The notes: generated by a model from the letters alone, not told the origin. 37,564 nucleotides of DNA from a virus (IMGVR_UViG_2695420705_000025); one strand, 5' to 3'; counted from the first letter of the stretch, positions 2,260 to 37,564 are shown. A program made the numbers and translations.

Positions 2260-3198
2260 ATGAATATTTCCGATATTCGCGCAGGACTGCGCACGCTTGT
2301 AGAAAATGAAGAAACCACCTTTAAACAAATTGCTCTTGAGAGCGGACTTTCTACCGGAACTATCAGTAGTTTTATCAATGATAAGTACAACGGGGATAAC
2401 GAGCGTGTTTCACAAATGCTGCAACGCTGGCTGGAAAAATATCATGCAGTTGCAGAACTACCTGAACCGCCCCGCTTTGTGGAAACGCAGACGGTAAAAC
2501 AAATCTGGACAAGTATGCGTTTTGCCAGCCTGACTGAAAGTATTGCTGTTGTATGTGGCAATCCTGGTGTGGGCAAAACCGAAGCGGCCCGTGAATATCG
2601 CCGCACCAATAACAATGTCTGGATGATCACCATTACGCCATCCTGTGCCAGCGTTCTGGAATGTCTTACTGAACTGGCGTTTGAGCTGGGAATGAATGAC
2701 GCACCACGCCGTAAAGGGCCGCTCTCCCGCGCCCTGCGACGTCGCCTTGAAGGTACACAGGGGCTGGTTATCATCGACGAAGCTGATCATCTTGGTGCCG
2801 AAGTTCTGGAAGAACTCCGCCTGTTACAGGAATCAACCCGTATTGGCCTTGTGCTGATGGGAAATCACCGGGTTTATTCAAATATGACGGGGGGTAACAG
2901 AACGGTTGAATTTGCCCGTCTGTTTTCCCGTATTGCAAAGCGCACTGCAATTAATAAAACCAAAAAAGCCGATGTAAAAGCTATTGCGGATGCCTGGCAG
3001 ATTAACGGCGAAAAAGAACTGGAGTTATTACAGCAGATTGCGCAGAAACCAGGTGCGCTTCGCATTCTGAATCATTCACTTCGCCTTGCAGCCATGACGG
3101 CTCACGGTAAAGGTGAGCGTGTTAACGAAGATTATCTGCGTCAGGCTTTCCGTGAATTAGACCTGGACGTTGATATTTCAACGCTGCTGCGTAATTAA
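2260..3198 (+). CDS. B: MuB ATP-dependent target DNA activator
   Basis: 312 aa with Walker A motif GNPGVGKTE and Walker B-like VIIDEADHL; recognised as MuB; position directly after A. Confidence 0.95.
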   Translation: MNISDIRAGLRTLVENEETTFKQIALESGLSTGTISSFINDKYNGDNERVSQMLQRWLEKYHAVAELPEPPRFVETQTVKQIWTSMRFASLTESIAVVCGNPGVGKTEAAREYRRTNNNVWMITITPSCASVLECLTELAFELGMNDAPRRKGPLSRALRRRLEGTQGLVIIDEADHLGAEVLEELRLLQESTRIGLVLMGNHRVYSNMTGGNRTVEFARLFSRIAKRTAINKTKKADVKAIADAWQINGEKELELLQQIAQKPGALRILNHSLRLAAMTAHGKGERVNEDYLRQAFRELDLDVDISTLLRN

Positions 3199-6386: not shown

Positions 6387-6555
6387 AACATCGTATTCGT
6401 GGCTGGGGAAATTTACCACGGTGAAACAGGAATGCCCGACCTGCGGTAATGAATCCCCTGAATATCTGAAAGAGTGCCCTCATTGTGGCGGGCAGAAATG
6501 CAACCACTGTGATATGGGCGATGACACGGCGTGCATGAATTGTGAAGGTGAGTGA
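6373..6555 (+). CDS. Small Zn-ribbon protein (four CxxC motifs)
   Basis: 60 aa with CPTC, CPHC, CNHC and CMNC; GGAGGT SD upstream. Confidence 0.6.
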   Translation: MENSETSYSWLGKFTTVKQECPTCGNESPEYLKECPHCGGQKCNHCDMGDDTACMNCEGE

Positions 6556-6556
6556 T

Positions 6557-6865
6557 ATGAATAATGGTGTATTTTCAAAATCAGAAGAGCTTGCCGCCCT
6601 GCTGATTGCCGGTGGTTTGCCGAAAAAAGAAGTGCATGACTTTGTGAATTTTGTATATGAGACGTCTCATGAAAAAGCTATTGATGAGGTCATGGCGTAC
6701 CGGTTTGGCATTATTGCTGAGTCACTGAGTCCTCACTGGATTATTGAAAATCTCCGCGCTATTGCTGATGGCAACGATAAATCAGCAGCCGTTGCTGCAC
6801 TGGATGTGTTACGGCAAATGAGTCTGAAATTTTATCCTGAATTTATTCTGAGGGCCGCAAAATGA
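6557..6865 (+). CDS. Hypothetical early protein (about 102 aa)
   Basis: ATG at 6557 preceded by a GAAGGTGAG SD; the track ORF starts at 6542. Confidence 0.55.
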   Translation: MNNGVFSKSEELAALLIAGGLPKKEVHDFVNFVYETSHEKAIDEVMAYRFGIIAESLSPHWIIENLRAIADGNDKSAAVAALDVLRQMSLKFYPEFILRAAK

Positions 6866-7438: not shown

Positions 7439-7990
7439 ATGAATCGCACATCCCTGATTAAATTAATCCATGTCGCCCGTCGGGAGCTACAACTCGACGA
7501 CGACACTTACCGAGCTTTTCTGATGCAGAAAACGGGCAAAATCAGTTGCCGCGAGCTGACGGTTACGCAACTGGAACAGGTGCTCGATGCCATGAAAGAA
7601 CGCGGCTTTAAGAAGCTGAATAAACATCCACGTCGCCGCTTTAAGGGGCATGTCACGCCCCGCGAGAAGGTATACAAAGTCTGGCAGCAGATGGCAGAAG
7701 ACGGTTTTATTACCGATGGCGGTGATGTGGCGCTGGATAAATATGTTCAGCGCCTGACGGCGAAACGTAATGGCGGACAGGGTGTTTCCACGCTGGCGTG
7801 GTGTCATGGCGACACCCTGTTGATTGTTCTCGAAACTCTCAAGCAGTGGCATATCCGCTGTATTCGTGAAGCCTTTTCCCGTCACGGGCTTCCGTTGCCA
7901 GTCAGTCCGTCCGGGCGTGAACTGCGCGGCTATGATGCCATGACGGCGGCTTATGCCCATGCCAGAAAGACACGGAGGATGGCACAATGA
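7439..7990 (+). CDS. gemA: GemA (host gene expression modulation protein)
   Basis: 183 aa, MNRTSLIKLIHVARRELQLDDDTYRAFLMQKTGK..., recognised as Mu GemA; immediately precedes mor. Confidence 0.85.
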   Translation: MNRTSLIKLIHVARRELQLDDDTYRAFLMQKTGKISCRELTVTQLEQVLDAMKERGFKKLNKHPRRRFKGHVTPREKVYKVWQQMAEDGFITDGGDVALDKYVQRLTAKRNGGQGVSTLAWCHGDTLLIVLETLKQWHIRCIREAFSRHGLPLPVSPSGRELRGYDAMTAAYAHARKTRRMAQ

Positions 7991-8376
7991 CGGAAGATTT
8001 ATTTGGTGATTTGCAGGATGACACCATCCTGGCACATCTTGACAATCCCGCAGAGGATACGTCACGCTTTCCGGCACTGCTGGCGGAGCTGAACGATTTA
8101 CTGCGCGGGGAATTGTCCCGGCTGGGTGTTGATCCTGCCCATTCACTGGAGATTGTTGTGGCTATCTGTAAGCATCTGGGCGGCGGTCAGGTCTACATTC
8201 CACGCGGTCAGGTTCTGGACTCGCTGATTCGGGATTTGCGTATCTGGAATGATTTTAACGGTCGCAACGTCAGCGAACTGACCACCCGTTATGGTGTCAC
8301 TTTCAATACGGTTTACAAGGCCATTCGCCGGATGCGACGGCTGAAATACCGCCAGTACCAGCCCTCACTTCTGTAA
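7987..8376 (+). CDS. mor: Mor, middle operon regulator (activator of Pm)
   Basis: 129 aa recognised as Mu Mor; clearly paralogous to the C protein ORF downstream (shared IPRGQ/IPCGD and RQ-R-L motifs). Confidence 0.9.
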   Translation: MTEDLFGDLQDDTILAHLDNPAEDTSRFPALLAELNDLLRGELSRLGVDPAHSLEIVVAICKHLGGGQVYIPRGQVLDSLIRDLRIWNDFNGRNVSELTTRYGVTFNTVYKAIRRMRRLKYRQYQPSLL

Positions 8377-8383
8377 ACAGTAA

Positions 8384-8407
8384 AGCCGGTTAATCCGGCT
8401 TTTTTTA
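8384..8407 (+). terminator. Rho-independent terminator after mor (end of early transcript)
   Basis: AGCCGG-TTAAT-CCGGCT hairpin followed by TTTTTTT, 8 nt after the mor stop. Confidence 0.8.
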
Positions 8408-8453
8408 CGTCCTCAATATCCTGTGATGAATAACCGTACCGGGGGAAATCATC

Positions 8454-8672
8454 ATGGGTAAAGGCTGGAATGCATCCTTTCATCTTGGCAGACGTGAGCG
8501 GCTGCGTCAGGAGGTTTTGCACCGTGTCGCCGGTGGGCCACGGCCTGCGCCCCGCGACTATACCGGTCATGATGGCACCCACGGCAGTTATTACATGAAA
8601 GGCTGGCAGTCAGTTGATATGCCGGAAATTCTTCATCATTGCCTGCTTTACAGGGAGAAACATTATGTCTGA
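8454..8672 (+). CDS. Hypothetical middle-region protein (72 aa)
   Basis: ORF with GGGGGA SD, first ORF after the early terminator. Confidence 0.5.
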   Translation: MGKGWNASFHLGRRERLRQEVLHRVAGGPRPAPRDYTGHDGTHGSYYMKGWQSVDMPEILHHCLLYREKHYV

Positions 8673-9027
8673 GCGTTCTGCTCGTCAGTGGCCTGATTTT
8701 TTATCGGTGGTATTACTGGCGCTGTTATTGTGGATAAGTCTGTTTTGTGGCTGGCGCGCGCTGATGTTTTGCTGTGCCTCGGTTTTCAGTGTTGCTTTAT
8801 GTGTTGCCGCTGATTGTCTGGATGCGCTGATAATGAGCTGCCGGGTGCCTGAACATTTTGCCCGGTTCGTCTGGCCTCTGACCTGGCTGGGGAGTCTGTC
8901 CGGGCTGGGATTAGCCGTGATGGCAACGTCTCAACTGAAAACGGGTCCTGAGCATGTCATCTGGGCGCTGGCCGGATTGCTGACGTTCTGGCTCTCCTTT
9001 CGTTTTCGCGCTCGTCTGTTCGGGTAA
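8665..9027 (+). CDS. Small multi-pass membrane protein (about 120 aa), candidate holin-like lysis factor
   Basis: Start taken at the ATG at 8665 (GGGAGA SD); the track ORF begins at 8614. Sequence has several long hydrophobic stretches (LSVVLLALLLWISLFCGW, VFSVALCVAADCL, GLGLAVMATS, VIWALAGLLTFWLSF). Lies upstream of C and lys where Mu membrane-protein genes sit. Confidence 0.55.
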   Translation: MSERSARQWPDFLSVVLLALLLWISLFCGWRALMFCCASVFSVALCVAADCLDALIMSCRVPEHFARFVWPLTWLGSLSGLGLAVMATSQLKTGPEHVIWALAGLLTFWLSFRFRARLFG

Positions 9028-9036
9028 AGGGGCACC

Positions 9037-9156
9037 ATGTACAGAAAATTCAGTGATGAATGTTTCGGGCCGTCCACGCTGATGAGTGCGATAAAAGTGA
9101 TTGCCCTTGTGGTTCTGATAACCATCAGTGCCGTGGTGTATCTTTCTGTCTGTTAA
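9037..9156 (+). CDS. Very small membrane protein (39 aa)
   Basis: ATG with AAAGGGG SD; single hydrophobic helix (VIALVVLITISAVVYL). Below the length cut-off of the ORF track, so weakly supported. Confidence 0.35.
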   Translation: MYRKFSDECFGPSTLMSAIKVIALVVLITISAVVYLSVC

Positions 9157-9168
9157 CCGGGGGAAAAT

Positions 9169-9591
9169 ATGCAGCATGATTTATTTGAACACGATCCGGC
9201 AATTCGCCAGTTAATCGGACATATTGATAACATCCCGGCCCCGGAACTGGAATCACGCTGGCCCCGTTCGGTGGTTGATCTGATTGATGTTCTGGAAAAC
9301 GAACTGAAACGCCAGAACGTCAGCAATCCCCGTGAGCTTGCCCGTAAACAGGCCGTTGCCCTGTCCTGTTTTCTGGGCGGGCGGCAGTTTTACATCCCCT
9401 GCGGCGATACGATCCTGACCGCGTTACGCGACGATTTGCTTTACTGCCAGTTCAATGGTTGTAACATGGAAGAACTGCGTCGCCAGTATCGCCTGTCCCA
9501 GCCGCAGATCTACCAGATTATTGCCCGCCAGAGAAAGCTGCATACACGACGTCATCAGCCTGATCTGTTCTCACCTGAAAGCCAGAAATAA
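9169..9591 (+). CDS. C: C protein, late transcription activator
   Basis: 140 aa, MQHDLFEHDPAIRQLIGHIDNIPAPELESRW..., recognised as Mu C; paralog of Mor; GGGGGAAAA SD. Confidence 0.92.
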   Translation: MQHDLFEHDPAIRQLIGHIDNIPAPELESRWPRSVVDLIDVLENELKRQNVSNPRELARKQAVALSCFLGGRQFYIPCGDTILTALRDDLLYCQFNGCNMEELRRQYRLSQPQIYQIIARQRKLHTRRHQPDLFSPESQK

Positions 9592-9614
9592 CCGGCATCC
9601 TGCCGGTTATTTCC
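9590..9614 (+). terminator. Rho-independent terminator after C
   Basis: CCGGCA-TCC-TGCCGG hairpin followed by TTATTTCC, overlapping the C stop codon. Confidence 0.75.
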
Positions 9615-9682
9615 TGTCACCATAATCCCGCACCTGCCATCTGATTTTTTAGACTGCCATCAGAGCATTTTTTCAGGGAAGC

Positions 9683-10201
9683 ATGATGGCGGGGATACCC
9701 AAAAAACTGAAAGCCGCACTGCTGGCGGCAACGATTGCCGGTGGCGGTGTGGGTGGTTATCAGGAAATGACCCGTCAGTCTCTGATCCATCTGGAAAATA
9801 TCGCTTATATGCCTTACCGCGATATTGCCGGTGTGCTTACGGTCTGTGTGGGACATACCGGGCCGGATATCGAAATGCGCCGTTACAGCCATGCGGAGTG
9901 TATGGCTCTTCTCGACGGTGATTTAAAACCGGTTTATGCGGCAATCGATCGTCTTGTCAGGGTGCCGCTGACGCCATATCAGAAAACGGCGCTGGCAACG
10001 TTTATTTTCAACACCGGTGTTACCGCATTCAGTAAATCAACGCTGCTGAAAAAACTCAATGCCGGTGATTACGCCGGAGCGCGTGACCAGATGGCCCGCT
10101 GGGTGTTTGCCGCAGGCCATAAATGGAAAGGACTGATGAACCGTCGCGAAGTGGAAATGGCTATCTGGAATATCAGGGGGGCGGATGACCTTCGCCAGTA
10201 A
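9683..10201 (+). CDS. lys: Endolysin, lysozyme-like, with N-terminal signal-anchor-release (SAR) domain
   Basis: 172 aa. The N-terminus KKLKAALLAATIAGGGVGGY is a weakly hydrophobic Gly/Ala-rich segment typical of SAR domains; recognised as Mu Lys. Confidence 0.9.
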   Translation: MMAGIPKKLKAALLAATIAGGGVGGYQEMTRQSLIHLENIAYMPYRDIAGVLTVCVGHTGPDIEMRRYSHAECMALLDGDLKPVYAAIDRLVRVPLTPYQKTALATFIFNTGVTAFSKSTLLKKLNAGDYAGARDQMARWVFAAGHKWKGLMNRREVEMAIWNIRGADDLRQ

Positions 10202-10571
10202 AAGTTTACTGCTGGCAGCCGTGTTTGCCGCCGTTCTGTCCGGGGTGTTGTGGCACAGGCTGGACAGCACCCGCCACGATAACCAGACGCTGCGCCGTGA
10301 ATTACAGACGGAGCAACAGGCCCGCAACACGGCTGAATGGTTGTTACACGGTCAGGAACAGACGATGCAGGTATTTTCCACTATCCGTGCCGCAAATCGT
10401 GCCGCGCGGCTGGCAGACGAGACAGAACATCATGATGCAAAACAAAAAATTACAACCGCCATTACCGGTGACAATTGCAGCACTCGTCCTGTGCCTGCCG
10501 TTGCTGCTGACAGGTTGCGGGAACTCGAAAAACGCACCCGTGCCATCGGTGGTGATCCTGCCCGAAACTGA
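10185..10571 (+). CDS. i-spanin (Rz-like inner-membrane spanin subunit)
   Basis: 128 aa with an N-terminal transmembrane helix (SLLLAAVFAAVLSGVLW) followed by a charged helical periplasmic domain; overlaps the lys 3' end by 17 nt. Confidence 0.75.
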   Translation: MTFASKSLLLAAVFAAVLSGVLWHRLDSTRHDNQTLRRELQTEQQARNTAEWLLHGQEQTMQVFSTIRAANRAARLADETEHHDAKQKITTAITGDNCSTRPVPAVAADRLRELEKRTRAIGGDPARN

Positions 10572-10773
10572 TGCAGAACTGACGGAAGCAACGCCCGTTC
10601 CGCCCATGCCACAGCCCCTGACGTGGGGAGCATCCCTTCTCTGGAATGCTGACCTGTTGATGGCGCTCGGGCAGTGCAACCGCGACAAGGCATCAGTCCG
10701 GGAACAGGAGACCCGAAGGAAAGAAATTTATGAACGAAGACCAGAACCGGGCGGTGGCGCTGCTGCTCGCTGA
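10432..10773 (+). CDS. o-spanin (Rz1-like outer-membrane lipoprotein), overlapping the i-spanin gene in another frame
   Basis: Starts MMQNKKLQPPLPVTIAALVLCLPLLLTGCGNS: signal peptide plus LLLTGC lipobox. Begins inside the i-spanin gene and extends 202 nt beyond its stop. Confidence 0.7.
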   Translation: MMQNKKLQPPLPVTIAALVLCLPLLLTGCGNSKNAPVPSVVILPETDAELTEATPVPPMPQPLTWGASLLWNADLLMALGQCNRDKASVREQETRRKEIYERRPEPGGGAAAR

Positions 10774-10924
10774 ACTCTGGCAGGGGGATACCCGTGATAT
10801 TCCCCGCCCGGCGGCGTATGACCCGCCTGTATTGTGTGCCGGTTGCGGTCGTGAGCTGCGGCCTGATGTGCTGAGACAGCAGCCGATGGCGAACTACTGC
10901 CACTGGTGCCGTGGAGCAGAATAA
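10730..10924 (+). CDS. Small hypothetical protein with CxxC pairs (64 aa)
   Basis: ORF overlapping the o-spanin 3' end; contains CAGC and CHWC. Confidence 0.5.
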   Translation: MNEDQNRAVALLLAELWQGDTRDIPRPAAYDPPVLCAGCGRELRPDVLRQQPMANYCHWCRGAE

Positions 10925-11223
10925 TGGATTTGATTTCAGTTTTAGCGTTATGGCCTTACCTGTTGCCTGTTGTGGCCGGTGGGGCCGTCTGGGCAATGCG
11001 TCGTAGTTTTGCCAGCACTGAGCGTGTGGAGCGTCTTGAAAACCGGATGACCGAAATGGAAACCCGCTACGCCAGCATCCCTGGCACAGAAGATGTACAC
11101 GAAATGCGCCTGCGAATTGCAGAGCTGTCCGGCGATATCCGGGTGCTGTCCCAGCGGGTGCAGTCATTTTCCCATCAACTGGAGCTGCTGCTTGAAAACG
11201 CAGTAAACCGGAGTAATTCATGA
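10924..11223 (+). CDS. Small membrane-anchored coiled-coil protein (99 aa), candidate endolysin-release or lysis-timing factor
   Basis: ATG at 10924 overlaps the upstream stop (TAATG). N-terminal transmembrane helix (LISVLALWPYLLPVVAGGAVWAM) followed by a helical segment. Position matches the Mu gene 25 region as I recall it. Confidence 0.55.
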   Translation: MDLISVLALWPYLLPVVAGGAVWAMRRSFASTERVERLENRMTEMETRYASIPGTEDVHEMRLRIAELSGDIRVLSQRVQSFSHQLELLLENAVNRSNS

Positions 11224-11510
11224 TTAACGATATTCTGACCGAAGACCGTCGTCTGGTCATCCTGCGTTCCCTGATGGACTGCAATAACGAAGCAAACGAA
11301 TCCATTCTTCAGGACTGTCTGGATGCATACGGACACAACGTTTCCCGCGATGTGGTTCGCGGCCAGATTGACTGGCTGGCAGAGCAGCAACTGGTCACCG
11401 TGGAAAACCTGCGCGGCTTTTATGTCGTAACGCTGACCTCCCGAGGTCAGGATGTGGCAGAAGGTCGTGCCCGCGTTGCCGGTGTCAAGCGTCCTCGTCC
11501 CCGTGCATGA
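11220..11510 (+). CDS. Small late protein (96 aa), likely DNA-binding or packaging-associated
   Basis: ORF with ATGA overlap to the upstream gene; directly precedes the terminase module. Confidence 0.55.
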   Translation: MINDILTEDRRLVILRSLMDCNNEANESILQDCLDAYGHNVSRDVVRGQIDWLAEQQLVTVENLRGFYVVTLTSRGQDVAEGRARVAGVKRPRPRA

Positions 11511-11521
11511 CAGGAGGCGTG

Positions 11522-12097
11522 ATGGACAGGAAAACACGGGGCCGGGCTTCAAAAGTGGATTTATTGCCGGAAAACGTACGTAAAACGCTGCATGAAATGC
11601 TGCGTGATAAAGCGATCCCACAGGCCCGCATTCTGGAAGAAATTAACGCACTGATTGAAGACGCTGGCCTGCCGGATGAGATGAAACTCTCCCGTTCCGG
11701 TCTGAACCGTTACGCGACGAACGTCGAGCAGGTAGGCCATAACCTGCGACAGATGCGTGAAATGACGTCAGCACTGACCGCAGAACTTGGCGACAAGCCA
11801 ATGGGAGAAACCACAAAGCTGATTCTGGAAATGGCCCGCAGCCAGCTTTTTAAGGCCATGATGCGGCAAATCGAAAACCCGGAATCTGACGTGGATATTG
11901 ACCTGCTGAAAAATGCCATGCTGGCGGCACAGCGTCTGGAATCCACGGCAATGTCCAGCCACCGGCGCGAGAAAGAAATCCGCCAGGCATTCGCAGAAGA
12001 AGCGGCAAACGCCGTCAGTGAAGAACTGCGCGGGCAGGATGGCATCAGCGAAGAGCTGGAGCAGCGTATCCGTGATGTGCTGCTGGGTAAGGCATGA
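11522..12097 (+). CDS. Putative terminase small subunit / DNA-binding packaging protein
   Basis: ATG at 11522 preceded by an AGGAGG SD (track ORF from 11507). Lies immediately upstream of the large terminase, the usual small-subunit position. Confidence 0.6.
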   Translation: MDRKTRGRASKVDLLPENVRKTLHEMLRDKAIPQARILEEINALIEDAGLPDEMKLSRSGLNRYATNVEQVGHNLRQMREMTSALTAELGDKPMGETTKLILEMARSQLFKAMMRQIENPESDVDIDLLKNAMLAAQRLESTAMSSHRREKEIRQAFAEEAANAVSEELRGQDGISEELEQRIRDVLLGKA

Positions 12098-30667: not shown

Positions 30668-32022
30668 TGTTTTATATTGATAACGACAGCGGCGTAACCG
30701 TCATGCCGCCCGTATCCGCCCAGCGTAGTGCTATCGTTCGCTGGTTTTCAGAAGGTGACGGGAATAATGTTATCACATGGCCCGGCATGGACTGGTTTAA
30801 TATTGTGCAGGCGGAGTTATTAAACACGCTGGAAGAAGCCGGTATTCAACCGGATAAAACAAAATTAAACCAGCTTGCACTATCCATTAAAGCCATTATG
30901 AGCAATAACGCACTGCTGATAAAAAATAACCTCAGCGAAATTAAAACTGCCGGGGCATCAGCACAGCGTACAGCACGTGAAAATCTGGATATTTATGATG
31001 CCAGCCTGAACAAAAAAGGACTCGTTCAGCTAACCAGTGCCACTGACAGCCCCAGTGAAACGCTGGCAGCCACCGCAAAAGCGGTGAAAATTGCGATGGA
31101 TAATGCCAGTGCCCGTCTGGCAAAAGACCGGAACGGAGCAGATATTCCCAATAAGCCGCTGTTTATCCAAAACCTCGGTTTACAGGAAACGGTAAACAAG
31201 GCTGGTAACGCTGTTCAGCGTTCTGGCGATACAATGACCGGAAAACTGAATCTACCACAGACATCTGCATTCGGCGTTGATACCGATAATGCACTGGGTG
31301 GTAATTCCATTACTCTCGGAGATAACGACACTGGTATTAAACAGGGCGGAGACGGTGTCCTTTTATTCTATTCAAATGGACAACTGGCATTTGGGCTTCA
31401 ACCCGCATCTGCTGATTTTTATAAGCGGGTTGCATACATTCCTCAGGGAATAATTCCTGATGGAAGTGGCGCATTTGCAGACCAGTTGAATAATGCCACC
31501 GCGCCTTTTGTTCAGACGCAGTTTGCCTGGAATCCCACTCCTGGTGGTCATTACGTGCCGATAGTTAAGGGCTTGTCCATTCGCAATGGACAGGGCTATC
31601 CCGGCGCGGTCAGCTTTGGTTATTTGCTGACAGAACAGTATGGATTTCCGGTTCCATGTATTCATATGCGTGGCGATGGCGGTAATGATGCTTTATGGCA
31701 GTTTAACCCGAACGATAAATCTTTTATTTCACCGGGTGCTCTTGTTGCGGGTGGCATCATTTATAACACCGATGGAAATATATTTGGCGGGTGTTGGGGT
31801 TCAAATTTAGCTGATTATCTCAATAGCACATATGTAAGAGACATTCGACTTGGTAGCGCAGAATCAATATCAGCATGGCGAGGCCCTGGTTACTGGGATA
31901 CTTCTGGATATGTTCTGACCGCAGCCGGAAACAGCAACACCGATGAATTTATTGATACATTAACCAGAAGGCCTATTCAGAAGTTGATTGGTGGGACATA
32001 TTATAACGTTGTGAGTATTTGA
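30667..32022 (+). CDS. S: Tail fibre protein S (constant Sc part fused to the variable part currently in expressing orientation)
   Basis: 451 aa. The constant N-terminal part runs to the left gix repeat (about 31167); the variable part lies inside the invertible segment. Confidence 0.88.
31167..31203. repeat. gixL, left inverted repeat / Gin recombination site of the G segment
   Basis: CCAAAACCTCGGTTTACAGGAAACGGTAAAC is the near-perfect reverse complement of 34340-34375 (two or three mismatches); lies inside S at the constant/variable junction (encodes LGLQETVN). Confidence 0.85.
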
Positions 32023-32023
32023 C

Positions 32024-32551
32024 ATGATGCATTTAAAAAACATTAAAGCAGGGAACCCCAAAACACCTGAACAATACCAGTTAACCAAAAAAGCTGGAGT
32101 GGTCTGGCTTTATACTGAAGATGGTAAAAACTGGTACGAAGAACAAAAAAACTTTCAACCAGATACTATAAAAATTGCATACGATAAAAATAATGTGATT
32201 GTTACCGTAAGCAAAGATGTTTCAACTATTAACCCGGAAGGTTTAAGTGTTGTTGAAGTATCCGATATTACGGCAAATCGTCGCGCAGACAATAACGGAA
32301 ACTGGATGTTTCTGGATGGTAAAGTAGTAAAGCGGGAATATACAAAACAGGAGCTGCAACAGCAGGCAGAGTTACAAAAAGCCGCTTTGCTTTCCGAAGC
32401 GGAGTCTGTGATTCAACCGCTGGAACGTGCTGTCAGGCTGAATATGGCAACTAATGAGGAACGCGCACGACTGGAGTCATGGGAACGCTACAGTGTTCTG
32501 GTCAGCCGTGTGGATACGGCAAATCCTGAATGGCCACAAAAGCCTGAATAA
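32024..32551 (+). CDS. U: Tail fibre assembly protein U
   Basis: 175 aa directly after S; paralogous to the minus-strand 177-aa ORF (both start [11 protein letters not shown]...). Confidence 0.88.
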
Positions 32552-32556
32552 AAATT

Positions 32557-32576
32557 AAGGCCCGATAGCGGGCCTT
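32557..32576. terminator. Bidirectional hairpin between convergent U and U'
   Basis: AAGGCCCG-ATAG-CGGGCCTT stem-loop in the 28-bp gap between the convergent stop codons. Confidence 0.55.
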
Positions 32577-32579
32577 GTC

Positions 32580-33113
32580 TCATTCTGGTTGTTCCGGGAA
32601 TGTTACAGGAAGAACAGAGGTATCTGTGGCATCAACCTGCTGCATGTATAACATCCAGTTAATGAGTCTTTGCCTGTCTGAATCGCTGATAATTCCCAGC
32701 GCAAGCTGTGTTTGCCAGCACTGCGTTTCCTCTCTGGCCTGTCGCAGCAAAATCTGTTTCTGAATTTCAGCCAGTTGACGTAGTTCTTCATCAGTCCGGG
32801 GGCGTTTCATGACCTTGCCATCCTGAAACACCCAGTCACCGAGAATATCGGCCCGGCGATTCGCTGTCGTGTCGGGTAATTCGACAACGCTCATTCCTTC
32901 CGGGTTAATAGACGACACATCTTTTTCAATATAGCGAATGATACCTCTGTCATCGTAAGCGATTTTTAGTGTGTCTGCCTGAAAGGCTTTTTGTGCCTCA
33001 TACCAGTTCTTACCATCTTCAGCGTAAAGCCAGATAACTCCGTGTTTCTTTGTTAACTCATACTGTTCCAGTGTTTTAGCGTTACCCGCTTTTATGTTCT
33101 TTAAGTGCATCAT
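32580..33113 (-). CDS. U': Tail fibre assembly protein U' (alternative, currently non-expressed orientation)
   Basis: 177 aa on the minus strand, paralogous to U; follows S' on the minus strand. Confidence 0.85.
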   Translation of the reverse strand: MMHLKNIKAGNAKTLEQYELTKKHGVIWLYAEDGKNWYEAQKAFQADTLKIAYDDRGIIRYIEKDVSSINPEGMSVVELPDTTANRRADILGDWVFQDGKVMKRPRTDEELRQLAEIQKQILLRQAREETQCWQTQLALGIISDSDRQRLINWMLYMQQVDATDTSVLPVTFPEQPE

Positions 33114-33114
33114 A

Positions 33115-34362
33115 TTAAACGCTCGCTACATTATACCAGGTGCCATTTATATACTTTTGAACGGGTCTGTAATAAACGCCCGCTATATTATCGGCAGAGT
33201 TGGACCCTGTATCCTGAACATTAATACCAGACAATACATGACCTGACGGGCACTGGAAATTCCATGTTTGCCAGTTGTTCACACCATGATATTGCTGTGA
33301 ACCAAGACGAACATCTTTCACATAGCGGGAATCAAAATTCCCCCAGTTGCTGGGTTGTATCTGACCGTTAACAGCAAATATCACCGAGTTATCTGTATTT
33401 CGCTGACTATAGAAATGCCAGCCTGAATCATCACCAAGCTCTGCAACAGTTGGTCTTGACGAATTTCCCCACAAGCTAAATGATGCATTACGGGCAGCGG
33501 TATTTGCACTTGAAAGTGTGAAGAACTTACTTTCCCCAGCCTGAATACCCTTTAATGATCTTGCTGAACCATTTATAAAGCGGAATACATGCACACCATT
33601 AGCATAAGCATCCAGCACCCCATCACCATTTTGTTTAAACCCGGTATCGTTATCTCCTAAAACTATTGAATTTCCACCCAGGGCATTAGCCGTTCCAATC
33701 CCCAGATTTCCGCTAAAAATGGCATTAATACCGAGTATTGAGTGAGAACAATAAAACCCTCGCCCATTGTTAAAATCCAGAATGGCTTGTGCGTTCGTGC
33801 TTTCTGTCGCGGGATTAGTTGCTCCCCACTTATATGTTGTTTGACCGACAGTATAATCCTGAGTTGGAACAATAACCGTTAGCCCTTCTTCAGCAGAAAC
33901 CCGCACAGGAAAAGCCCTGCCTTCAACGTAAAAAACGCTGCATACATCATCTTCTTTAAGGCTTGTTACAATGGAATGGATTGCGCGCTCATTAGTCTGA
34001 TACGTCGAAAAATAACCTGCCGCATATGAACCACGATCAGTCCAGCCACCAGGCATTACCATTCCATTGAATTCGCAGTTATTCATTGCGTAATCACTAC
34101 TGGCACATGTGGTCGTTATAATCACTCTGGAAGCCAGCTCGCCAGTGCCGCCTGTGGAACGCCGGAAAATAACTGGATACCACTTTCCACCAATTGCATT
34201 AGACGGCGCATTAAATGCGTACTGCCGCATTCCTTTTTTCTTATCCACCTCGCCTTTGCTGTAAACATTAATGTTACTCAGGAAGCGATCCTTATCAGGA
34301 ATATCCGCGCCGTTCTGGTTTTTCTGTAATGCGCCAGAAGCCTGATTTACCGTTTCCTGCAA
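33115..34362 (-). CDS. S': Sv', alternative variable tail fibre domain; startless ORF that opens at gixR
   Basis: Minus-strand ORF whose first codons (LQETVN) are encoded by the gix repeat; the in-frame codon upstream is TAA and the apparent start is TTG. So it has no start of its own and is expressed only after inversion fuses it to Sc. Shares the motif [22 protein letters not shown] with S. Confidence 0.85.
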   Translation of the reverse strand: MQETVNQASGALQKNQNGADIPDKDRFLSNINVYSKGEVDKKKGMRQYAFNAPSNAIGGKWYPVIFRRSTGGTGELASRVIITTTCASSDYAMNNCEFNGMVMPGGWTDRGSYAAGYFSTYQTNERAIHSIVTSLKEDDVCSVFYVEGRAFPVRVSAEEGLTVIVPTQDYTVGQTTYKWGATNPATESTNAQAILDFNNGRGFYCSHSILGINAIFSGNLGIGTANALGGNSIVLGDNDTGFKQNGDGVLDAYANGVHVFRFINGSARSLKGIQAGESKFFTLSSANTAARNASFSLWGNSSRPTVAELGDDSGWHFYSQRNTDNSVIFAVNGQIQPSNWGNFDSRYVKDVRLGSQQYHGVNNWQTWNFQCPSGHVLSGINVQDTGSNSADNIAGVYYRPVQKYINGTWYNVASV

Positions 34363-34375
34363 ACCGAGGTTTTAG
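34340..34375. repeat. gixR, right inverted repeat / Gin recombination site of the G segment
   Basis: Reverse complement matches gixL; located 59 bp upstream of the gin start. Confidence 0.85.
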
Positions 34376-34433
34376 ATAATGGCTGTTTCCGGCCTGCATG
34401 GCATGATTTGCGCTTTTAAACGGGAGATCCAGA

Positions 34434-35027
34434 GTGCTGATTGGCTATGTAAGGGTATCAACAAATGACCAGAATACAGACCTGCAACGAAACGCTCTTG
34501 TTTGTGCAGGATGTGAACAAATATTTGAAGATAAATTAAGCGGAACAAGGACAGACAGACCTGGATTAAAACGCGCTTTAAAGCGCCTTCAAAAAGGTGA
34601 CACACTTGTTGTCTGGAAACTGGATCGCCTCGGGCGAAGCATGAAACATTTGATTTCTCTCGTAGGGGAATTACGAGAGCGAGGGATTAATTTTCGCAGT
34701 CTTACTGACAGTATTGATACGTCATCTCCAATGGGGCGTTTTTTCTTCCACGTTATGGGTGCCCTGGCTGAGATGGAACGAGAACTAATCATCGAGCGAA
34801 CGATGGCTGGACTTGCTGCCGCCAGAAATAAAGGCCGTATTGGTGGGCGACCACCTAAACTAACCAAAGCGGAATGGGAGCAGGCCGGGCGTTTATTAGC
34901 ACAAGGAATCCCCCGCAAGCAGGTTGCATTGATCTACGATGTGGCCCTGTCAACTCTGTATAAAAAACACCCCGCGAAACGAACGCATATAGAAAACGAC
35001 GATCGAATCAATCAAATCGATCGGTAA
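34434..35027 (+). CDS. gin: Gin serine recombinase (DNA invertase), copy 1
   Basis: 197 aa from a GTG start, MLIGYVRVSTNDQNTDLQRNALVCAGCEQIF... with catalytic serine in VRVST; recognised as Mu Gin. Confidence 0.92.
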   Translation: MLIGYVRVSTNDQNTDLQRNALVCAGCEQIFEDKLSGTRTDRPGLKRALKRLQKGDTLVVWKLDRLGRSMKHLISLVGELRERGINFRSLTDSIDTSSPMGRFFFHVMGALAEMERELIIERTMAGLAAARNKGRIGGRPPKLTKAEWEQAGRLLAQGIPRKQVALIYDVALSTLYKKHPAKRTHIENDDRINQIDR

Positions 35028-35035
35028 TACAGATC
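35001..35035. promoter_or_regulatory. Cluster of three GATC (Dam) sites, mom upstream regulatory region, copy 1
   Basis: GATC at 35001, 35019 and 35032, overlapping the gin 3' end and upstream of com. Mu mom is known to be controlled by Dam methylation and OxyR binding at three upstream GATC sites. Confidence 0.6.
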
Positions 35036-35109
35036 GATTATGTCTCAATAACCACACTCAACCCATGATGTTTTTTAAGATAGTGGCGAATTGATGCAAA
35101 GGAGGTGAG

Positions 35110-35280
35110 ATGAAATCAATTCGCTGTAAAAACTGCAACAAACTGTTATTTAAGGCGGATTCCTTTGATCACATTGAAATCAGGTGTCCGCGTTGCAAAC
35201 GTCACATCATAATGCTGAATGCCTGCGAGCATCCCATGGAGAAACATTGTGGGAAAAGAGAAAAAATCACGATCTCCTAA
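35110..35280 (+). CDS. com: Com-like translational activator, C-terminally altered copy created by the duplication junction (56 aa)
   Basis: Identical to com through codon 54 (zinc-finger cysteines intact), then reads IS-stop across the junction at 35271/35272 instead of HSDETVRY-stop. No mom gene follows this copy. Confidence 0.6.
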   Translation: MKSIRCKNCNKLLFKADSFDHIEIRCPRCKRHIIMLNACEHPMEKHCGKREKITIS

Positions 35281-35982
35281 AACTATTGAATTTCCACCCA
35301 GGGCATTAGCCGTTCCAATCCCCAGATTTCCGCTAAAAATGGCATTAATACCGAGTATTGAGTGAGAACAATAAAACCCTCGCCCATTGTTAAAATCCAG
35401 AATGGCTTGTGCGTTCGTGCTTTCTGTCGCGGGATTAGTTGCTCCCCACTTATATGTTGTTTGACCGACAGTATAATCCTGAGTTGGAACAATAACCGTT
35501 AGCCCTTCTTCAGCAGAAACCCGCACAGGAAAAGCCCTGCCTTCAACGTAAAAAACGCTGCATACATCATCTTCTTTAAGGCTTGTTACAATGGAATGGA
35601 TTGCGCGCTCATTAGTCTGATACGTCGAAAAATAACCTGCCGCATATGAACCACGATCAGTCCAGCCACCAGGCATTACCATTCCATTGAATTCGCAGTT
35701 ATTCATTGCGTAATCACTACTGGCACATGTGGTCGTTATAATCACTCTGGAAGCCAGCTCGCCAGTGCCGCCTGTGGAACGCCGGAAAATAACTGGATAC
35801 CACTTTCCACCAATTGCATTAGACGGCGCATTAAATGCGTACTGCCGCATTCCTTTTTTCTTATCCACCTCGCCTTTGCTGTAAACATTAATGTTACTCA
35901 GGAAGCGATCCTTATCAGGAATATCCGCGCCGTTCTGGTTTTTCTGTAATGCGCCAGAAGCCTGATTTACCGTTTCCTGCAA
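35272..35982 (-). pseudogene. Truncated second copy of the Sv' 5' region (N-terminal 237 codons)
   Basis: Exact copy of 33652-34362; the reading frame continues into junction-derived sequence (track ORF 35146-35982). Confidence 0.8.
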
Positions 35983-35995
35983 ACCGAGGTTTTAG
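35960..35995. repeat. Third gix site (duplicate of gixR), in direct orientation to gixR and inverted relative to gixL
   Basis: Identical to 34340-34375 at an offset of 1620 bp. Confidence 0.85.
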
Positions 35996-36053
35996 ATAAT
36001 GGCTGTTTCCGGCCTGCATGGCATGATTTGCGCTTTTAAACGGGAGATCCAGA

Positions 36054-36647
36054 GTGCTGATTGGCTATGTAAGGGTATCAACAAATGACCAGAATACAGA
36101 CCTGCAACGAAACGCTCTTGTTTGTGCAGGATGTGAACAAATATTTGAAGATAAATTAAGCGGAACAAGGACAGACAGACCTGGATTAAAACGCGCTTTA
36201 AAGCGCCTTCAAAAAGGTGACACACTTGTTGTCTGGAAACTGGATCGCCTCGGGCGAAGCATGAAACATTTGATTTCTCTCGTAGGGGAATTACGAGAGC
36301 GAGGGATTAATTTTCGCAGTCTTACTGACAGTATTGATACGTCATCTCCAATGGGGCGTTTTTTCTTCCACGTTATGGGTGCCCTGGCTGAGATGGAACG
36401 AGAACTAATCATCGAGCGAACGATGGCTGGACTTGCTGCCGCCAGAAATAAAGGCCGTATTGGTGGGCGACCACCTAAACTAACCAAAGCGGAATGGGAG
36501 CAGGCCGGGCGTTTATTAGCACAAGGAATCCCCCGCAAGCAGGTTGCATTGATCTACGATGTGGCCCTGTCAACTCTGTATAAAAAACACCCCGCGAAAC
36601 GAACGCATATAGAAAACGACGATCGAATCAATCAAATCGATCGGTAA
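36054..36647 (+). CDS. gin: Gin serine recombinase (DNA invertase), copy 2
   Basis: Identical to the 34434-35027 copy. Confidence 0.92.
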   Translation: MLIGYVRVSTNDQNTDLQRNALVCAGCEQIFEDKLSGTRTDRPGLKRALKRLQKGDTLVVWKLDRLGRSMKHLISLVGELRERGINFRSLTDSIDTSSPMGRFFFHVMGALAEMERELIIERTMAGLAAARNKGRIGGRPPKLTKAEWEQAGRLLAQGIPRKQVALIYDVALSTLYKKHPAKRTHIENDDRINQIDR

Positions 36648-36655
36648 TACAGATC
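36621..36655. promoter_or_regulatory. Cluster of three GATC (Dam) sites, mom upstream regulatory region, copy 2 (the one actually upstream of com-mom)
   Basis: Same sequence as 35001-35035 at an offset of 1620 bp. Confidence 0.6.
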
Positions 36656-36729
36656 GATTATGTCTCAATAACCACACTCAACCCATGATGTTTTTTAAGA
36701 TAGTGGCGAATTGATGCAAAGGAGGTGAG

Positions 36730-36918
36730 ATGAAATCAATTCGCTGTAAAAACTGCAACAAACTGTTATTTAAGGCGGATTCCTTTGATCACATTGAAAT
36801 CAGGTGTCCGCGTTGCAAACGTCACATCATAATGCTGAATGCCTGCGAGCATCCCATGGAGAAACATTGTGGGAAAAGAGAAAAAATCACGCATTCTGAC
36901 GAAACCGTGCGTTATTGA
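36730..36918 (+). CDS. com: Com, zinc-finger translational activator of mom
   Basis: 62 aa, [62 protein letters not shown], with CxxC...CxxC zinc finger; overlaps the mom start. Confidence 0.9.
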
Positions 36919-37564
36919 GTATGAAGGCCAGATTGTTGGCTATGGTTCAAAGGAGCTGCGCGTTGAAACCATATCTTGCTGGCTGGCCCGCACAATTATT
37001 CAGACAAAGCACTATTCCCGCCGTTTTGTGAATAACTCTTACCTCCACCTGGGAGTATTCAGCGGACGCGATCTGGTTGGCGTTCTCCAGTGGGGATATG
37101 CCCTTAACCCCAACTCAGGTCGTCGTGTCGTGCTTGAAACGGATAACCGGGGCTATATGGAGTTGAACCGCATGTGGCTACACGACGACATGCCCCGCAA
37201 CTCTGAATCACGGGCCATCAGTTATGCACTGAAAACCATAAGGTTACTGTATCCGTCAGTGGAGTGGGTTCAGTCTTTTGCAGACGAACGCTGCGGACGT
37301 GCTGGCGTTGTGTATCAGGCGTCAAATTTTGATTTTATTGGCAGCCATGAAAGCACGTTCTACGAGCTGGATGGTGAGTGGTATCACGAGATAACGATGA
37401 ACGCGATTAAACGCGGTGGACAACGAGGCGTGTATTTACGGGCTAATAAAGAGCGTGCCGTGGTGCACAAATTTAATCAGTATCGCTACATCAGGTTCCT
37501 GAACAAGCGAGCAAGGAAGCGACTAAATACCAAGCTATTCAAGGTTCAGCCATACCCTAAGTGA
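36839..37564 (+). CDS. mom: Mom DNA modification enzyme (adenine carbamoylmethylation, anti-restriction)
   Basis: 241-aa ORF starting inside com and ending at the last base of the window; recognised as Mu Mom. The exact start codon may be downstream of 36839. Confidence 0.88.

Follow-up and report, generated by a model that had tools for sequence, protein, structure and literature searches.

The window analysed here, a stretch of 37,564 nucleotides (nt) from the virus IMGVR_UViG_2695420705_000025, very probably carries in its positions 8,454 to 11,223 the holin-less lysis system of phage Mu, borne by a Mu/D108-like genome. The system comprises an endolysin of the signal-anchor-release (SAR) type (lys, or gp22), a two-component spanin (gp23 and gp23.1) and a releasin (gp25). 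At the level of sequence, the cassette has the predicted features of all three, the spanin being of the overlapped kind and the releasin a type I protein of the DUF2730 family. Their functions would follow from published experiments on Mu proteins that are identical or nearly so. The first-pass annotation of this DNA had described a SAR endolysin with overlapping spanins and no conventional adjacent holin; it was correct, but the finding was already known (Chamblee et al. 2022, mBio 13:e00813-22; PMC9239132). The identification matters little here, since the system already has a published genetic characterisation (2022) and a GenBank annotation, and the window repeats it almost unchanged. The useful outcome is annotation: gp25 (10924-11223) is to be named a releasin and gp23.1 an o-spanin, while gp19 and gp20 are not to be named a holin and antiholin.

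Alignment placed position 1 of the window at Mu nt 1099 (the start of ner) and position 37564 at Mu nt 36602 (the end of mom). As the alignment spans the genome from the start of ner to the end of mom, the window is one Mu-like genome without only its extreme ends. The first 25 kb were 97.8% identical to Mu and 98.8% identical to D108, and over the full-length lysis neighbourhood (8000-12000) DNA identity was 99.0% to D108 and 98.8% to Mu. The ten genes from 18 to 26 were collinear between the window and Mu, and gp18, gp19, gp24, gp25 and gp26 were each 100% identical to their Mu counterparts. Gene order, gene overlaps and the Pm and Plys control regions were likewise those of the Mu lysis system, whose components are labelled SAR endolysin, i-spanin, o-spanin and releasin in GenBank record AF083977. 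Mu-like prophages in 40 of 5,426 complete E. coli genomes contained the lysis cluster at a coverage of at least 80%, with a top match of 99.9%.

Relative to Mu, the proteins of the cassette and its upstream genes had only point substitutions (V15A and S78G in gp22; I16M and N17S in gp20; R98C, T138S and P139Q in the activator C; five each in gp23 and gp23.1). Most of these are common to D108, and the known functional residues are untouched. D108 (NC_013594) was the closest deposited phage over the lysis stretch, with an identical gp25 and a gp22 that differs solely by S78G. Its record leaves the o-spanin unannotated and the releasin unnamed, which are differences of annotation and not of biology; the o-spanin has also been left out of the records of SfMu and Yersinia phages. 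The substitutions R98C and P139Q in C and S78G in the endolysin occur in neither Mu nor D108, and again affect no known functional residue. In our assessment, no evidence speaks against the identification of the system. What does weigh against its functional reading is that activity in this isolate would be carried over from Mu proteins, from which gp22, gp20 and both spanin subunits differ at the positions or in the numbers given above.

The product of lys was 98.8% identical to Mu gp22, V15A being shared with D108. Its open reading frame (ORF) opens at 9683 (MMAG...), while the curated Mu start corresponds to 9686. The GH24 triad E-x8-D-x5-T was complete (E37, D46 and T52), and the nearest solved structures were 4zpu (RrrD) and 3hde/3hdf, with matches of about 1e-37 for 4zpu and 3hde; both of these alignments begin at gp22 residue 5, inside the N-terminal extension. 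This extension consists of MAGIPKKLK, in which K6, K7 and K9 are retained, followed by the charge-free segment AALLAATIAGGGVGGY with five Gly and five Ala (G, A or T at 11 of 16 positions). The best 19-residue Kyte-Doolittle (KD) window of the segment reached 1.05, compared with 1.8-2.8 for the genuine transmembrane (TM) segments nearby. The segment is weakly hydrophobic, as expected of a SAR segment rather than of a stable TM. Together with the PF00959 domain, this bears out the Gly/Ala-rich SAR endolysin proposed from the sequence and agrees with the published account of Mu (PMC9239132). SAR behaviour of Mu gp22 has been shown experimentally, by release with the phage 21 pinholin S21-68 and by chloroform (PMC9239132). 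Given the near identity of the two proteins, gp22 of the window is predicted to be tethered to the membrane while inactive and to be released from it.

The endolysins of pinholin systems (S21-68/R21 of phage 21; Lyz of P1) belong to the class of gp22, GH24 muramidases that carry a SAR segment at the N-terminus. Unlike these systems, the window has no pinholin or holin, and release relies on a DUF2730 protein with a cytoplasmic domain. A further difference is that release in Mu is not triggered by depolarisation, as dinitrophenol (DNP) delays Mu lysis.

The spanin genes follow lys directly, the start of gp23 overlapping the end of lys by 17 nt. The i-spanin gp23 was 96.1% identical to Mu gp23 and has its TM at residues 4-22. 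The o-spanin gp23.1 was 95.6% identical to Mu gp23.1, with the lipobox LLLTGC at residues 24-29, a lipid-modified Cys29 and a mature part of 85 residues that is rich in proline (10 Pro). The two genes are out of frame, sharing 140 nt before gp23.1 continues for 202 nt past the end of gp23; the overlap and the lipobox had both been read correctly in the first-pass annotation. The lambda Rz/Rz1 pair is built on the same two-part plan, in which the inner-membrane subunit has a TM at its N-terminus and a helical domain in the periplasm, and its partner is an outer-membrane lipoprotein encoded in another frame of the same DNA. However, lambda Rz1 is fully embedded, whereas gp23.1 of the window begins within gp23 and extends beyond it ('overlapped'). 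In Mu, gp23 and gp23.1 form a two-component spanin, and lambda RzRz1 was tested beside a Mu 23.1 amber construct (Fig. 2A of PMC9239132).

The last gene of the cassette encodes a protein 100% identical to gp25 of both Mu and D108. It matched the Pfam DUF2730 family (PF10805) with 50.4 bits (cut-off, 24.9; E = 2.5e-13). An uncharged stretch at residues 3-25, with the TM at about residues 4-25 and some two to four residues before it, is followed by an Arg-Arg (RR) pair and a helical tail (residues 26-99), from which the positive-inside rule predicts a single-TM protein with N-out/C-in topology. The gene is the fourth after lys and so lies within five genes of it, in the late transcript, and no terminator or promoter that is conserved with Mu separates the two. 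A holin-independent release factor had been suspected in this neighbourhood, in line with the published description of Mu, and three membrane proteins had been put forward as partners of the endolysin. The third of these, gp25, is the releasin, whereas the other two, gp19 and gp20, are not lysis partners: they belong to the middle operon and are non-lethal in the DNP test described below. Membrane helices, which had been proposed for all three, were found in each by a hydrophobicity check, with four uncharged hydrophobic stretches in gp19 (residues 12-30, 32-49, 68-89 and 98-112), one strong TM segment in gp20 (residues 21-39; KD, 2.77) and one TM in gp25.

GenBank record AF083977 labels Mu gp25 'releasin', the name given by Chamblee et al. 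(PMC9239132). A Mu 25::cam prophage fails to lyse in time and is rescued by chloroform, and cells lyse with gp22 and gp25 together but with neither alone (PMC9239132). The dependence of gp22 on gp25 is conferred by K6 and K7, and either K6A or K7A abolishes it (PMC9239132). As gp25 of the window is 100% identical to that of Mu and both lysines are kept, gp25 would be required here as well to release the K6-K7-locked gp22. Mu gp25 also aids the release of unrelated SAR endolysins, and DUF2730 proteins are found as well in Mu-like phages with endolysins that lack a SAR domain (PMC9239132). Our literature search found no later paper that alters this picture. A sequence search of the PDB with gp25 returned no solved relative, only chance matches (neuroglobin, E = 0.2). 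A PADLOC match to PbeC along the coiled-coil stretch (E = 0.0039) and sub-threshold Pfam matches to DUF7310 and DUF7365 were dismissed as coiled-coil noise. Two database homologs of gp25 (P0004, at residues ~42-52, and P0023, at residues ~42-83) matched at their ends and were scrambled in the middle, a pattern that would fit sequencing errors or, in decaying prophages, compensated frameshifts.

Mu has no holin (PMC9239132), and the absence of a classical holin next to lys, noted in the first reading of this DNA, extended to the whole window. Among all ORFs of at least 30 codons, including those in a non-Mu insert at 6542-6865, no further gene-consistent TM protein was found. The statement that there is no conventional holin therefore holds as far as sequence can tell. 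On the basis of topology alone, gp19 (four TMs) and gp20 (one TM) have been proposed as a holin/antiholin pair that controls release of the SAR endolysin (Samanta et al. 2021). Both are small membrane proteins encoded near lys, and the N-in/C-in multi-pass topology of gp19 and the single TM of gp20 resemble some holin classes (annotation notes in AF083977). However, a holin would be expected in the late lysis transcript, in which gp25 lies, while genes 19 and 20 are situated between Pm and C in the Mor-dependent middle operon, upstream of the C terminator and Plys. In the DNP test, expression of gp19, gp20, both together or gp25 was non-lethal, unlike that of lambda S105 and S21-68, and DNP retarded Mu lysis instead of triggering it (PMC9239132). 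Non-lethality would be expected of the window proteins too, as gp19 and gp25 are identical to those of Mu and gp20 differs at 2 of 39 residues. For the dispensability of both genes, PMC9239132 cites Mathee & Howe 1993. Furthermore, seven plaque-forming Muvirus phages, each isolated as a phage (SfMu, PhiR68_1 and five Mu-like phages of Yersinia), lack gene 19, and genes 19 and 20 are both missing from diverged relatives that retain a SAR endolysin and a DUF2730 protein. We consider a holin/antiholin role for this pair extremely improbable, and published data already contradict it; gp19 and gp20 are cargo of the middle operon and dispensable.

The distribution of these genes among relatives was examined more broadly. 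A tblastn search of deposited phages with gp19 matched three distinct phages only (Mu, D108 and Mu_3F6), with no match in PhiR68_1 and four further Yersinia phages; most Muvirus phages naturally lack gene 19. Its absence is clean in SfMu and in Yersinia phage vB_YpM_5, as the alignment breaks exactly at window positions 8669-9037, and gene 20, C, lys and gp25 remain despite the loss. In contrast to gp19, gp25 was 96-100% identical in all Muvirus records, including those of phages without gene 19. In vB_YpM_5 (MT374853; locus L005, 960-1520), a 186-residue protein encoded upstream of the gene 18 homolog matched Glyco_hydro_108 (9.3e-25) and PG_binding_3 (6.8e-14), and so appears as a second, soluble muramidase from the middle-operon slot of a phage without gene 19.

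Three more distant relatives (L006 to L008; DUF2730 proteins 63-71% identical) have fully kept the order lys, i-spanin, gp24-like gene, DUF2730 gene, gp26-like gene and gp27, and their endolysins have kept a basic N-terminus and a Gly/Ala-rich SAR segment (e.g., MPGIPKKLKASLLAITLAGAGGGGY). Nothing like genes 18-20 was found in these three loci between GemA and the Mor-family activator; the slot holds unrelated predicted lipoproteins. The ORFs with lipoprotein-like signal peptides (...LVGC..., ...LATCS...) are at 2767-3075 on the minus strand in L006, 2761-3144 in L007 and 2828-3220 in L008, and in each locus a single Mor-family gene was called upstream of lys. A fourth relative (L009), which looks like a degraded prophage, has the gene order intact between the i-spanin and the gp27-like gene, DUF2730 included, and has an N-terminally truncated endolysin. 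An ad hoc lipobox pattern gave an o-spanin candidate in one of the four diverged loci (L009), a count that reflects the limits of the ORF rule and is not evidence of absence. From the gene order of these relatives, the DUF2730 protein is therefore the conserved partner of the SAR endolysin, and genes 18-20 occupy a variable cargo slot.

By analogy with Mu, for whose near-identical proteins the following steps have been shown, Mor would switch on the middle operon (genes 18, 19, 20 and C), and C would then activate Plys, leading to transcription of lys, gp23, gp23.1, gp24 and gp25. The endolysin gp22 would be exported by Sec, and its Gly/Ala-rich, weakly hydrophobic SAR segment would keep it tethered and inactive in the inner membrane. 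As the dibasic K6-K7 motif on the cytoplasmic side locks gp22 in the membrane, its release would need gp25 as the unlocking factor. Freed and refolded gp22 would degrade the murein, after which the gp23/gp23.1 spanin complex would disrupt the outer membrane.

How gp25 might unlock gp22 was approached through conservation in its family. As a word-indexed homolog search yielded close relatives only, family-wide conservation was taken from an exhaustive profile search: a profile built from 15 close homologs of gp25 was run against 1.84 billion cluster representatives and gave 288 matches at E <=1e-3, nearly all of about 100 residues. Aligned with gp25, 123 full-length matches made a set of 124 sequences. 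The most conserved positions were P53 (98%), G70 (85%), E46 (84%), R41 (78%) and L61 (78%). Hydrophobic residues recurred at positions 35, 38, 42, 45, 49 and 52, and then at 58, 61, 65, 68, 72, 75, 79, 82 and 89, with spectral power maximal at a period of 3.5 residues in both helices of gp25. An AlphaFold2 model was all-helical and interrupted only once, at residues 50-54, where the near-invariant Pro lies. Such a pattern marks a membrane-anchored coiled coil of the helix, turn, helix type rather than an enzyme. We infer that gp25 probably acts as such an oligomerising coiled coil on its TM anchor. The family pattern (invariant Pro turn, heptad periodicity, no catalytic triad) steers toward an oligomeric, non-catalytic model. 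Because the family pattern, the AlphaFold2 model and the action on unrelated SAR endolysins point the same way, a non-catalytic mechanism is favoured: gp25 most likely works non-enzymatically, probably as an oligomeric membrane-transit chaperone or transient conduit.

Several points weigh against this mechanism. The AlphaFold2 model is of low confidence (pLDDT, 62; pTM, 0.24). The authors of the Mu study leave room for protease, host-factor or twin-arginine translocation (TAT), and transient channel or chaperone models (PMC9239132). Furthermore, S31, T32, D57 and H84 are invariant among the 15 close homologs, and an activity specific to the Mu subfamily is conceivable despite the lack of a family-wide triad. 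Those residues would suit a membrane-tethered serine-type protease that clips the basic N-terminal peptide (K6, K7) of gp22 and so frees the SAR segment. The cytoplasmic domain of gp25 contains 9 Ser, 2 His and 12 acidic residues (our count and PMC9239132), and gp25 dependence is conferred by two basic residues, of a kind that typically sets the specificity of proteases. However, no conserved Ser/His/Asp triad was found among the 124 DUF2730 sequences, in which Ser columns reached at most 26%, the best His 60% and the best Asp 46%, and a protease fold would not fit a domain of ~73 residues predicted as two long heptad-periodic helices. The authors count the help given to unrelated SAR endolysins against a specific protease, and the occurrence of DUF2730 in phages with non-SAR endolysins likewise argues against one that clips gp22 (PMC9239132). 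We regard proteolysis as very unlikely.

Alternatively, gp25 may act indirectly, by recruiting a host factor (e.g., the TAT machinery, via the RR junction motif) that extracts the SAR segment, an idea raised by the authors of the Mu study (PMC9239132). An effect on diverse SAR endolysins fits such a general machine, and basic residues are found at the TM/cytoplasm junction of the family, with K or R at position 27 in 72% and at position 26 in 44% of sequences. However, the RR pair comes after the TM helix, a topology reversed with respect to a TAT signal (PMC9239132), and the positive-inside rule accounts for it equally well, given an N-out/C-in anchor. This route appears unlikely compared with the favoured non-enzymatic action of gp25 itself. 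A related question is whether release of SAR endolysins was the original task of the family. The window and diverged relatives share a conserved block of gp24 (CxxC...CxxC), gp25 (DUF2730) and gp26 (winged-helix), which is located just upstream of the small terminase, and in the window the three genes are translationally coupled by TAATG and ATGA overlaps. As noted above, DUF2730 also accompanies non-SAR endolysins in some Mu-like phages. An ancestral role as a coiled-coil anchor that tethers a late process (packaging or transpososome-linked DNA) to the inner membrane, with endolysin release secondary or additional, is conceivable but seems rather improbable.

Table 1. Genes and control regions of the lysis neighbourhood, with predicted products (positions are those of the window)
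Feature	Position	Strand	Basis
mor-gene 18 intergenic region: Mor-activated middle promoter Pm and terminator hairpin (stem 8382-8402)	8369..8453	+	Hairpin scan and Mu annotation
Gene 18: 72 aa, soluble, first middle-operon gene	8454..8672	+	100% identical to Mu gp18; PHROG 2121, unknown function
Gene 19: 120 aa, predicted 4-TM inner-membrane protein, middle gene	8665..9027	+	100% identical to Mu gp19
Gene 20: 39 aa, predicted single C-terminal TM, middle gene	9037..9156	+	I16M and N17S relative to Mu gp20
C: late-gene transcription activator (Mor family), switches on Plys	9169..9591	+	Pfam Mor PF08765, 5.7e-33
C-lys intergenic region: terminator hairpin AACCGGCATCCTGCCGGTT (9590-9608), C-dependent late promoter Plys, lys ribosome-binding site	9589..9685	+	Mu alignment
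lys/gp22: SAR endolysin, GH24 muramidase, 171 aa	9686..10201	+	PF00959 Phage_lysozyme, 2.3e-37, residues 36-157
gp23: i-spanin, N-terminal TM, helical periplasmic domain, Cys98	10185..10571	+	PHROG 214 Rz-like spanin, 6.4e-35
gp23.1: o-spanin, outer-membrane lipoprotein	10432..10773	+	Pfam LysC/Rz1-like PF23793, 7.7e-15
gp24: 64 aa, CxxC...CxxC (C36/C39, C57/C60)	10730..10924	+	100% identical to Mu gp24
gp25: releasin (DUF2730), 99 aa, predicted N-out/C-in single TM and cytoplasmic helical coiled-coil domain of ~73-74 aa	10924..11223	+	PF10805

The features upstream of lys are listed in Table 1. Across the 111 nt compared, the Pm region agreed with D108 throughout and departed from Mu at a single position; in the Mu annotation, Pm is at 9163-9233 and the associated terminator at 9179-9200 (window offset, -794). 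The C-lys intergenic region had a mean column identity of 98% with Mu and D108, in an interval for which the Mu annotation gives the C terminator at 10383-10406 and Plys at 10403-10469. The simple terminator scan skipped the C-terminator hairpin owing to its T-run criterion, and the hairpin was confirmed via the Mu alignment. Conservation of the Pm region and of the region with the C terminator and Plys assigns genes 18, 19, 20 and C to the middle operon and lys to gp25 to the late transcript, as in Mu. C itself was 97.9% identical to Mu C. No hydrophobic segment was found in gp18, and for gp18, gp19 and gp20 the Pfam, NCBIfam and PADLOC scans gave no match and PHROGs only families of unknown function.

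The small gene gp24, which lies between the spanins and gp25, had not been mentioned in the first-pass annotation. Its first 44 nt are shared with the end of the o-spanin gene, and a TAATG junction links it to gp25 by translational coupling. Its Cys pairs and gene position are kept in all four diverged relatives (L006 to L009). Matches to NinF, BsaP and ECs_2282 were far under the cut-offs and were read merely as a CxxC zinc-binding flavour. In the two-plasmid assay, gp24 was dispensable for gp22 release, as gp22 and gp25 suffice for lysis (PMC9239132).

Elsewhere in the window, a perfect (100%) tandem duplication of 1620 nt was present (33652-35271 and 35272-36891). The repeated unit comprises the 3' part of a minus-strand S'-type tail-fibre ORF, the right inverted repeat of the G segment, gin and the first part of com/mom. 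In consequence, gin is present in the window in two identical copies (34434-35027 and 36054-36647), and the right-hand inversion site, whose partner lies at 31163-31218, also occurs twice. No such duplication was seen in the deposited phages (including Mu and D108) or the complete E. coli genomes searched; it either arose very recently or is an artefact of assembly. The invertible G segment itself (31241-34282), which encodes the tail-fibre/chaperone pairs S/U and S'/U', was only ~69-73% identical to Mu, compared with ~97-98% for its flanks, a divergence that would imply a different host-range module. Finally, about 290 nt at the gp13/gp14 junction (Mu 7652-7664) have no Mu counterpart and contain a soluble ORF of 107 residues (6542-6865; MKVSDMNNGVFSKSEELAALL...) with no hydrophobic segment.

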